Source: an uncultured Caulobacteraceae bacterium
GTDB lineage: Bacteria; Pseudomonadota; Alphaproteobacteria; Caulobacterales; Caulobacteraceae
DNA: 64,000 nt
Direction: 5' to 3'
NCBI GenBank assembly: GCA_964432415.1
Contig: CAYSNW010000008.1
Coordinates: 15,726-79,725, forward strand
The translations under genes and the position numbers were made by a program. This document shows positions 12,974 to 14,641 of the stretch, piece by piece. Position 1 is the stretch's first letter, and the number at the start of each line of letters is the position of its first letter. The notes beneath the pieces are model-generated. The model did not search any database and was not told the origin of the DNA. It saw only the letters and a program-made list of their open reading frames with translations.

Positions 12974-14641
12974 TCAATGCGTCGGCATGAAATAGATCTT
13001 TGAGGCCTTGCCCCAGTCGTTGAACAGCTTGCCGGACTGGGCGTCGACATAGACCGTCACGCCGTCGCGGTTGACCACGTTGAACACGTGGCCGCCCCCC
13101 TTCTGCCAGTCGACGGAGACCATTCCGCGGGCGTCCGACTTGCCGGCCATCAGCGCATCGATCGCGGCCTTGTCGTTGACCGGGCGGAACTGACTGCCGT
13201 GGAGCTGTTCCAGCATCGAGTCGGTACCGCCCGTGCCCAGCACATCGGTCCCCGCCGAGCCGAAATTTCCGCCCGCGGCGGCGCGCTCAAAACGGTCCGC
13301 GCAGATGTAGCAGTTGGTGTTGTCGCCCGCGAACCGGCCATAGCTCTGGTTGATCTTGGCGGCCTGGTCGAGGACCCGCTTCTCGGCGACTTCCTGCACC
13401 AGGTTCGCGGGTGGATTCGGACCGGCGGCGGCGAGGCGGGCCTCCGCCTCGACCCTGGCCTGGGTAGCGGCCGCCTGGCGTTGGGCGACCTGGTCCGCGC
13501 CGGCCCGGGCGCGGGCGTCGATCTGCTTGGCTTCCCGCTGCAGCTGCTCACCCTGGATGATCTCCTTCTGACGCTTTCCGTCAGCGATGGCCTTTTCCGC
13601 CGCCTCGACGTCGGCCTTGGCCTTGGCTTCCGAGGCGGCGTCCTTCGCAGCCTGTTCCTGCGCCGCCTTCTCCGCCGCCTCCTTGGCGGCTTGCTCCTGC
13701 GCGGCCTTCTCTGCGGCCTCTTTCGCAGCCTGTTCCTGCGCCGCCTTCTCCGCCGCCTCCTTGGCGGCTTGCTCTTGAGCGGCCTTCTCAGCGGCTTCCT
13801 TCGCCGCCTGCTCCTGCGCCGCTTTTTCCGCGGCTTCCTTCGCGGCCTGCTCCTGGGCCGCCTTTTCTGCGGCCTCTTTCGCGGCCTGCTCCTGAGCCGC
13901 GCGTTCGGCGGCCTCGCGGGCGGCCTGCTCCTCCGCAGCGCGAGCGACCGCATCGCGCTCGACGGCGCCGGCGCCCGCTCCCGCAATGGTCTCGCCGTCC
14001 TTGGCCAGCGCCTTGCCGCCGATGGCGACGACCTCTTCGCCGCCCCGTGCCAGTCCTTTCACCAGGCCGGCGCCGGCATGGTAGACGTCCAGTCCGATCA
14101 TCGCGGCCTGGATGCCGGTATCGACCCATTCAGCCACCTTGTGCGCCCACTCCCGGTCGCCGAAAGCCGCCCACAGCGCCTCCATATCGCGCAGCAGGTC
14201 CGGATAGTGGCGCATGTAGTCTTCGGTCCCACGCACCGCCTGGGTCCAGAGTTTGTCGTAGTCGGAATTGAACTTGTCGATCGCGCCCAGCTGCTTGGCG
14301 GCTTCGTCCTTCAGCTGCTGTTGCAGCTCCTCGAAGCGCTTCTTGGCCTCGTCCACCGCCTTGGCGATGTCCTCGACGCTCGGTGGAGGATCGACGCAGT
14401 CCTCGCACCCGGCCAGGGCCGCGAGGCGCTTGGCCTGCAGCGCGCGCTCGGCGGCCAGTTGATCCTCCAGCGCCTGGATCCGCTCCAGCTTGGCGCCGAT
14501 GTCGTCGGCGCCGCCCGGTTTCGGGGTCTCCGACACGGGCCGGCGCCCCCCGGTCCCCCCAGGCGCCGGAGTCGGGGCGCCGCCCGCCGGCGGGTTGGGG
14601 CCGACGAAGATGTCGCGCACGACGGAAATGATCGAGGTCAT
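12974..14641 (-). CDS. 555-aa repeat protein: N-terminal region, coiled-coil tandem repeat (AAQEQAAKEAAEK)n, C-terminal Cys-His-Asp papain/transglutaminase-like domain; candidate effector
   Basis: In-frame ATG at 14639-14641 (MTSIISVVRDIFVGPNPP...), 4 nt after the stop of the upstream small gene. The C-terminus has NCYICA ... GGGHVFNVVNRDGVTVYVDAQ (C, H, D in papain-like order). No signal peptide. Confidence 0.75.
   Translation of the reverse strand: MTSIISVVRDIFVGPNPPAGGAPTPAPGGTGGRRPVSETPKPGGADDIGAKLERIQALEDQLAAERALQAKRLAALAGCEDCVDPPPSVEDIAKAVDEAKKRFEELQQQLKDEAAKQLGAIDKFNSDYDKLWTQAVRGTEDYMRHYPDLLRDMEALWAAFGDREWAHKVAEWVDTGIQAAMIGLDVYHAGAGLVKGLARGGEEVVAIGGKALAKDGETIAGAGAGAVERDAVARAAEEQAAREAAERAAQEQAAKEAAEKAAQEQAAKEAAEKAAQEQAAKEAAEKAAQEQAAKEAAEKAAQEQAAKEAAEKAAQEQAAKEAAEKAAQEQAAKDAASEAKAKADVEAAEKAIADGKRQKEIIQGEQLQREAKQIDARARAGADQVAQRQAAATQARVEAEARLAAAGPNPPANLVQEVAEKRVLDQAAKINQSYGRFAGDNTNCYICADRFERAAAGGNFGSAGTDVLGTGGTDSMLEQLHGSQFRPVNDKAAIDALMAGKSDARGMVSVDWQKGGGHVFNVVNRDGVTVYVDAQSGKLFNDWGKASKIYFMPTH
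13600..13950 (-). repeat. in-frame 39-bp tandem repeat (13-aa unit AAQEQAAKEAAEK, about 6 perfect plus degenerate flanking units) with a 78-bp higher-order periodicity
   Basis: The 51-mer cgcagcctgttcctgcgccgccttctccgccgcctccttggcggcttgctc occurs twice, 78 bp apart. The surrounding units differ at synonymous positions. Confidence 0.85.

Follow-up and report, generated by a model that had tools for sequence, protein, structure and literature searches.

A Tox-PL1 papain-fold domain as the probable toxic tip of a polymorphic toxin in a Caulobacteraceae cassette without the usual immunity gene

Toxin domains of the Tox-PL1 family (PF15644) are described in the 2012 survey of Zhang et al. (PMC3482391). 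It lists Tox-PL1 with type II, III, VI and VII secretion systems (T2SS, T3SS, T6SS and T7SS) and with MuF, and neither with PrsW-linked systems nor with alphaproteobacteria. The family signature given there is NC-H-DxQ, and the immunity protein Imm35 (PF15567) is described as specifically associated with Tox-PL1, the table of the same paper also pairing Imm35 with Ntox40. Here, we report on a 555-residue protein encoded in a 64,000-nucleotide stretch of DNA, referred to as the window, from contig CAYSNW010000008.1 (positions 15,726 to 79,725) of an uncultured Caulobacteraceae bacterium. Its C-terminal domain shares with Tox-PL1 a score above the PF15644 gathering threshold, the NC-H-DxQ signature, a predicted papain-like fold, a position at the extreme C-terminus and, in its relatives, the company of Imm35. 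The related Tox-PL1 cassettes have Imm35 adjacent, whereas the window copy is devoid of it. This domain is probably a Tox-PL1 papain-fold hydrolase, the toxic tip of a polymorphic toxin whose tip can be swapped and whose immunity protein is normally Imm35.

Among solved structures, the nearest relatives are both host-directed effectors, OspI by sequence and SpvD by fold. Shigella flexneri OspI (PDB 3B21/3W30), which deamidates a glutamine of UBC13 and is cited as the solved PF15644 representative, is homologous to the window domain and its catalytic triad aligns. However, OspI is a stand-alone T3SS effector acting on a eukaryotic protein, has no immunity protein and is only ~18% identical to the window domain. 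The Salmonella cysteine hydrolase SpvD (PDB 5LQ7) is likewise a host-directed T3SS effector, with 11% identity and no match at the sequence level. Cpe1 is a papain-like toxin that cleaves cytoplasmic GyrB/ParE (Song et al. 2025, PMC12136450). Cpe1 and the C39-like toxins, among them the C. rodentium CdiA-CT (8SSM), differ from the window domain in belonging to another sequence family without sequence similarity to it, in being delivered by the T6SS or by contact-dependent inhibition (CDI), and in having an immunity protein other than Imm35. Lastly, PrsW-dependent polymorphic toxins link a polytopic PrsW-family domain to a C-terminal toxin, an N-terminal fusion proposed as a route for toxin export or release, PrsW itself being a stress-signalling protease (PMC3482391). 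Exactly this arrangement occurs in P0002, one of the closest relatives of the window protein. In the window and in most relatives, in contrast, the PrsW-like protein is separate and lacks the EExxK motif, and the toxin has its own anchor, composed of a signal peptide, a Cys loop and a transmembrane segment, unlike the PrsW-fused toxins. The DUF6789, ~300-residue and PD40 proteins that accompany it do not figure in the passages of PMC3482391 consulted, which treat PrsW solely in the form of an N-terminal fusion. No description of the resulting six-gene cassette was found in the searchable literature, in which DUF6789 appears only in a survey of nematode G-protein-coupled receptors, unrelated to the cassette. 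The S8-PTS system is a different one.

The C-terminal Tox-PL1 domain

The initial annotation had proposed a Cys...His...Asp triad in the C-terminal region of the 555-residue protein and a Tox-PL-type papain-like hydrolase, and both proposals stand. The triad is formed by C444, H518 and D533, located in the motifs NCYICA, GGGHVF and VDAQ that start at residues 443, 515 and 532, respectively, and the NC-H-DxQ signature is complete (N443-C444, H518, D533-A-Q535). The Cys-to-His distance, estimated at about 70 residues, is 74, and the His-to-Asp distance is 15 residues instead of 16. Pfam analysis of the isolated C-terminal 151 residues reports a hit with PF15644 (Gln_amidase, "Papain fold toxin 1") at 43.5 bits (E 7.6e-11; gathering score 24.1 bits), whereas the full-length protein reaches 23.1 bits, slightly under the cut-off, which we attribute to its repeat-rich stalk. 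HMMER, run exhaustively on 1.84 billion representative proteins, returned the protein itself and 191 relatives at E <= 1e-3, the closest one being 41% identical; when the domain by itself served as query, a word-indexed search for homologues returned no matches. In a MAFFT alignment of 111 of these domains, H518 is conserved in all of them, and N443, C444, D533 and Q535 in 110 each; the lack of conservation of Cys, His and Asp that would have spoken against the initial proposal is not seen. Judged by its sequence, the match of the triad is far beyond chance, and the domain is a divergent but ordinary member of a catalogued toxin domain family. A profile scan of genome contigs with the subfamily alignment was driven by GHVFN and returned generic Streptomyces Tox-PL1 loci only, with no cassette of the type described below. 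The His-Asp part of the domain also has a phage match, PHROG 5234, in line with the fusions of MuF to Tox-PL1 that the 2012 survey describes (PMC3482391).

AlphaFold modeling of the domain from its single sequence gave a predicted local distance difference test score (pLDDT) of 33, and a 50-sequence alignment was used instead, yielding a pLDDT of 91.3 and a predicted template modeling score (pTM) of 0.87. In this model, the Cys is the first residue of a helix (27-38, model numbering), the His lies in the next β-sheet, on strand 100-108, and the Asp is at the end of the following strand (111-116). In this confident prediction the fold is papain-like: a helix opens with the Cys, and neighboring strands carry the His and the Asp, a catalytic arrangement and not the non-catalytic fold that had been envisaged as a counter-result. 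The first helix of the model is also confident and places the start of the folded domain at residue ~418 (position 13390), so that the domain is C-terminal, as initially located, but begins earlier than residue 437 (position 13330). Comparison of the family profile with OspI (3B21) returns an E value of 2.9e-8, and the NC, H and DxQ elements all align. The transglutaminase-like alternative put forward initially finds no support, as the Pfam search of the domain reports no transglutaminase match (PF01841 and relatives), and the transglutaminase-like Foldseek matches are vasohibins with weak scores (E about 0.3). We hold with high confidence that the domain is a predicted Cys-His-Asp amide hydrolase and serves a polymorphic toxin as its toxic module.

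Upstream of this domain, the low-complexity stalk noticed initially is confirmed. Tandem Repeats Finder reports a 39-bp (13-residue) repeat, AAQEQAAKEAAEK, in ~7.7 copies with 79-84% matches at 13635-13936, which makes up most of the stalk. The relatives differ widely in the length of this stalk, which P0115 nearly lacks, and the stalk therefore probably expands and contracts. The helical N-domain that precedes the stalk is shared, together with the toxin domain, by six relatives, as reported by phmmer (P0006, E 7e-47; P0002, 8e-31; P0004, 2e-25; P0005, 2e-22; P0115, 1.5e-21; P0010, 4e-19), the first four listed being the closest relatives. It is the constant region of the cassette toxins, since it is also present in P0151, the toxin of contig L083, and in the toxin of contig L090, whose C-terminal domains differ.

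The cassette and its interchangeable toxin tips

Cassette contexts were obtained from the contigs of relatives numbered with the prefix L. In two of them, L081 and L083, a ~0.9-kb block without similarity (L081:3409-4334 versus L083:4153-5126) is flanked by sequence of 99.0% identity on one side and 98.7% on the other. The swapped block spans the toxin from residue ~224 on, a small open reading frame (ORF) and the first ~50 nucleotides of the next gene. It contains Tox-PL1 and Imm35 in L081, and an unrelated 170-residue C-terminus and a 145-residue ORF in L083. Another toxin C-terminus, in L088 (1-1002), is Anthrax_toxA-like (PF03497, E 3.9e-20), and the same C-terminal sequence is found in the fragment L086 (15-329), which has no Pfam match on its own. 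Both toxins are followed by an ORF of 263-270 residues, precomputed as DUF8367, which is presumably the immunity protein of the Anthrax_toxA-like toxin. L090 and L091 carry a fourth type, raising the count to at least four C-terminal toxin types across the cassettes. The first part of their small ORFs (L090:8097-8492 and L091:1069-1593) duplicates ~100 residues from the N-terminal end of the ~300-residue protein, which in sequence looks like a recombination scar of cassette exchange, and the L091 small ORF ends in the way the 145-residue ORF of L083 does. Imm35, a protein of ~100 residues, is encoded directly 3' of the toxin in all five related Tox-PL1 cassettes (L081, L082, L087, L092 and L093), two of them with Pfam E values of 1e-14 and 7e-12. 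A constant N-terminus combined with an interchangeable toxin tip and immunity protein is standard polymorphic-toxin behavior; it is seen in the relatives, the window representing one allele. The polymorphic-toxin context anticipated by the initial annotation is therefore borne out by the L081/L083 swap.

The gene order that recurs in the contigs of the relatives comprises a polytopic membrane protein of ~560-650 residues, a DUF6789 protein of 200-217 residues, the anchored toxin, a small ORF, a protein of ~290-310 residues and, often, a signal-peptide protein of ~220 residues with PD40 repeats. The window counterparts are collected in Table 1. The assignment of the second protein rests on the 200-residue protein of L081, which scores 36.5 bits on DUF6789 (PF20587) and has the same sequence as its L083 counterpart. 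The 304-residue protein, whose gene had been implied to provide the antidote, shares 38-55% identity overall with its cassette homologues (40-42%, E up to 6e-69, in the comparison of the window genes). In each related cassette these homologues sit 3' of the toxin and immunity genes, and this type of gene adjoins at least four distinct toxin types. The 304-residue protein is thus a constant component of the cassette and is rejected as the cognate immunity protein. NCBIfam analysis reports nothing meaningful for any cassette protein, and no PADLOC defence-system model matches them, except for a coiled-coil artefact, JetC.

Table 1. Positions of the locus components in the window
Feature	Position	Strand	Remarks
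605/667-residue membrane protein, ~11 hydrophobic segments	15666..17483	(-)	28% identity, E 2.5e-33 to the 653-residue protein of L081
219-residue membrane protein, ~5 hydrophobic segments	15029..15688	(-)	57% identity, E 6e-69 to the 200-residue proteins of L081/L083
128-residue anchor ORF	14646..15032	(-)	blastp to the toxin N-termini of L081, L083 and L082, E 6e-13 to 2e-9
555-residue ORF	12974..14641	(-)	In order: Pro/Gly linker, short coiled coil, N-domain, stalk, Tox-PL1 domain
Helical N-domain, residues ~85-235	13937..14389	(-)	phmmer against relatives
Ala/Glu/Lys/Gln-rich helical stalk, residues ~236-417	13391..13936	(-)	Tandem Repeats Finder and translation
Tox-PL1/Gln_amidase (PF15644) papain-like hydrolase domain, residues 418-555	12977..13390	(-)	
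Catalytic and signature codons	N443 13315-13313; C444 13312-13310; H518 13090-13088; D533 13045-13043; Q535 13039-13037		
304-residue protein, Pro-rich N-terminus then helical region	12049..12963	(-)	Conserved cassette part

The link of the cassette to PrsW is provided by P0002 (1079 residues), in which a polytopic N-terminal domain replaces the signal peptide and anchor while the N-domain and Tox-PL1 are the same. This polytopic domain passes the PrsW-protease threshold (PF13367, 26.4 bits) and is collinear with the stand-alone membrane proteins of the cassettes, the 605-residue protein of the window included. The latter has no Pfam match with PrsW, and by alignment it may be called distantly PrsW-like, encoded by a separate gene. 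The canonical catalytic motifs of PrsW are EExxK, FxxxE and HxxxN/D. P0002 exhibits VIEELAK, GFALVE and DHAMFN, while the aligned positions of the window protein read AMRNMVL, GFELVG and LHEAVW. The stand-alone PrsW-like proteins lack EExxK, with AMRNM and GVRLI at the aligned position, and have a GFGF[DE]L motif in common (window 15666-17483; L081:135-2096; L090:4084-5775).

The anchor module is encoded in the window by the 128-residue ORF, which contains a signal peptide (..AWA|HD), a CSGPDDC loop, a Gly/Ala-rich hydrophobic segment, an RRRRR cluster and a coiled coil. In P0004, P0005, P0006, P0010, P0115 and L090 it is fused to the toxin. Of the six relatives that share the toxin domain and N-domain (P0002, P0004, P0005, P0006, P0010 and P0115), five open with a signal peptide, followed by a (D/H)DCxxxxDC loop, a hydrophobic segment rich in Gly and Ala, and a cluster of basic residues. 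The signal peptide, the hydrophobic segment and the RRRRR cluster together predict an N-out/C-in topology, the second hydrophobic segment of the window anchor being weak (mean Kyte-Doolittle estimated at about 1.1). Residues 51-76 of the 128-residue ORF return weak NCBIfam matches with MYXO-CTERM (E 0.013), PVV-CTERM (0.019), GVDTG-CTERM (0.039) and the LPXTG anchor (0.083), a likeness of sequence to C-terminal sorting signals that is a resemblance only. The enzyme that handles MYXO-CTERM is an intramembrane protease of the CPBP type, which is related to PrsW.

Around the cassette, the neighborhood is of the housekeeping type (tmk, a holB-like gene, a peptidase S41 gene and an acyl-CoA synthetase gene), and no mobile-element genes were found among the neighboring ORFs scanned. 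A 74-residue ORF (11823-12047, plus strand) abuts the end of the 304-residue protein gene, at the position occupied by the PD40 gene in the relatives; the gene calls of L095 and L096 include this ORF, which matches no family. The sole Rfam match in the 64 kb is a tRNA (19568-19654, minus strand). Judged from the window, the host is a diderm and probably an alphaproteobacterium; the window encodes a TonB-dependent receptor and NtrY and has a GC content of ~69%.

The window copy, its proposed mechanism and the alternatives

The window copy departs from its relatives at both ends of the toxin gene. At the 3' end, the toxin stop codon (12976-12974) is followed by 10 nucleotides and then by the ATG of the 304-residue protein gene, with no ORF between them; among about ten related cassettes, the window alone shows this arrangement. 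The PD40 gene is also missing from the window cassette. At the 5' end, the stop codon of the anchor ORF (TGA, 14648-14646) is separated by 4 nucleotides from the toxin ATG at 14641, which lies in the +1 frame. The motif W...V[AV]RDI..G of P0002 is divided in the window, its Trp falling in the upstream ORF and VRDI in the downstream one. This suggests, from sequence, that the anchor and toxin ORFs derive from an ancestral single gene; the spanning motif being short, we treat this as a suggestion only. L095 and L096, independent assemblies with 2 mismatches and no gaps over 5.7 kb, exhibit the same junction and the same gene calls, the 555-residue protein included. An assembly error behind the split is thereby rejected. 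This locus was reached via the 304-residue protein, exact look-up of the 555-residue protein returning no record. Programmed +1 frameshifting at GCC-TGA-C is likewise rejected, as the Ala tRNA has no +1 re-pairing and there is no slippery site. No clear Shine-Dalgarno sequence precedes the toxin ATG.

For the polymorphic toxin that we favor, the chemistry, the target and the export route are inferred as follows. C444, at the start of its helix, would be the nucleophile, and H518 and D533 on the adjacent strands would complete the triad, N443 and Q535 being the other two family-invariant residues. Recombination joins a constant part, made of the anchor, the N-domain and the variable-length stalk, to interchangeable toxin domains, behind each of which normally lies a small gene for a dedicated cytoplasmic immunity protein, Imm35 in the case of Tox-PL1. 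The toxin would hydrolyze an amide in a cytoplasmic protein of the target cell, either a peptide bond, as a protease, or a glutamine side chain, as a deamidase; by analogy with OspI, the window domain could have deamidase chemistry. That the target is cytoplasmic is proposed with moderate confidence, because signal peptides are missing from Imm35 and the other small ORFs and because Cpe1 provides a papain-like precedent. Delivery or release would depend on the co-conserved PrsW-like polytopic protein and the DUF6789 protein, and these two, together with the ~300-residue and PD40 proteins, may form a release or export machinery, as their co-conservation and the P0002 fusion suggest. The route out of the cell is assigned with low confidence.

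Several observations weigh against an exported antibacterial toxin. The literature searched yielded no antibacterial substrate for any Tox-PL1 toxin. Imm35 is absent from all frames of the 64 kb, as indicated by tblastn and by a hidden Markov model (HMM) built from five Imm35 sequences (best E 4.5). With the predicted N-out/C-in topology, the toxin part would begin on the cytoplasmic side of the producer, and no export path across both membranes of the diderm host is evident. Since the PrsW-like protein lacks EExxK, its peptidase activity, and with it a proteolytic release, is doubtful. A copy without immunity gene and detached from its anchor is hard to reconcile with an active toxin that would poison its own producer.

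Possibly, although we hold this only tentatively, the cassette is an undescribed polymorphic-toxin trafficking system in which a toxin tethered at first at the cytoplasmic face of the inner membrane is released or exported by a new route. It would comprise a polytopic protein derived from PrsW but with degenerate motifs, DUF6789, a toxin with a cleavable signal peptide, a disulfide loop, a TM anchor and a helical stalk, a coiled-coil protein of ~300 residues and a PD40 protein. The window allele would then be a natural variant whose toxin is harmless to the producer until the machinery processes it. It seems rather unlikely that the window copy is instead a decaying remnant, in which a frameshift split off the signal and anchor, so that the toxin is no longer anchored or exported, the immunity and PD40 genes were deleted and the Tox-PL1 domain persists as a functionless relic. 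The unique absence of an ORF behind the toxin, the +1 offset of the anchor ORF with a motif that appears to span the boundary, the loss of PD40 and the want of a clear Shine-Dalgarno sequence would all fit such decay. However, the 555-codon ORF is unbroken, with high third-position GC and all five signature residues kept, the same arrangement is found in assemblies that differ by single-nucleotide polymorphisms, and the TGA-4 nt-ATG layout permits translational coupling. Moreover, should the toxin act in the cytoplasm, losing the immunity gene before the toxin would be expected to be lethal.

Improbable, in our estimate, is a hydrolase that is not exported at all, either a processing (releasing) peptidase or a membrane-tethered intracellular regulatory or suicide hydrolase triggered, for instance, by envelope stress or phage. 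Zhang et al. (PMC3482391) consider some Tox-PL1 copies to be probable releasing peptidases, the predicted C-in topology would leave the domain in the cytoplasm of the producer, every partner is either a membrane or a cytoplasmic protein, and PrsW acts in stress signaling; the PADLOC result argues against a defence role of this kind. Least probable is a eukaryote-directed effector resembling OspI and SpvD, which would dispense with immunity as its target is absent from bacteria: the host-directed nature of these two nearest solved relatives and the missing immunity gene of the window copy would agree with it, but no host-delivery secretion system came to notice, either close to the locus or in the window ORFs examined, the samples of the related cassettes are metagenomes without stated origin, and the presence of Imm35 in all related Tox-PL1 cassettes implies a bacterial target.

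Implications for the family and the cassette

The domain family itself was already known, and what the present analysis adds to the first reading of the sequence is the cassette context and the anomaly of the missing immunity gene. Since no antibacterial Tox-PL1 toxin with a known substrate was found, any tractable member would help to decide between protease and deamidase. The intact toxin without its usual antidote recurs in several assemblies and amounts to a natural experiment in self-protection of the producer. The cassette ties a PrsW-like protein and DUF6789 to Tox-PL1 and to at least three further toxin types. It thereby provides two families hitherto without a function with one that can be tested, and brings the 2012 prediction of PrsW-dependent export within experimental reach.

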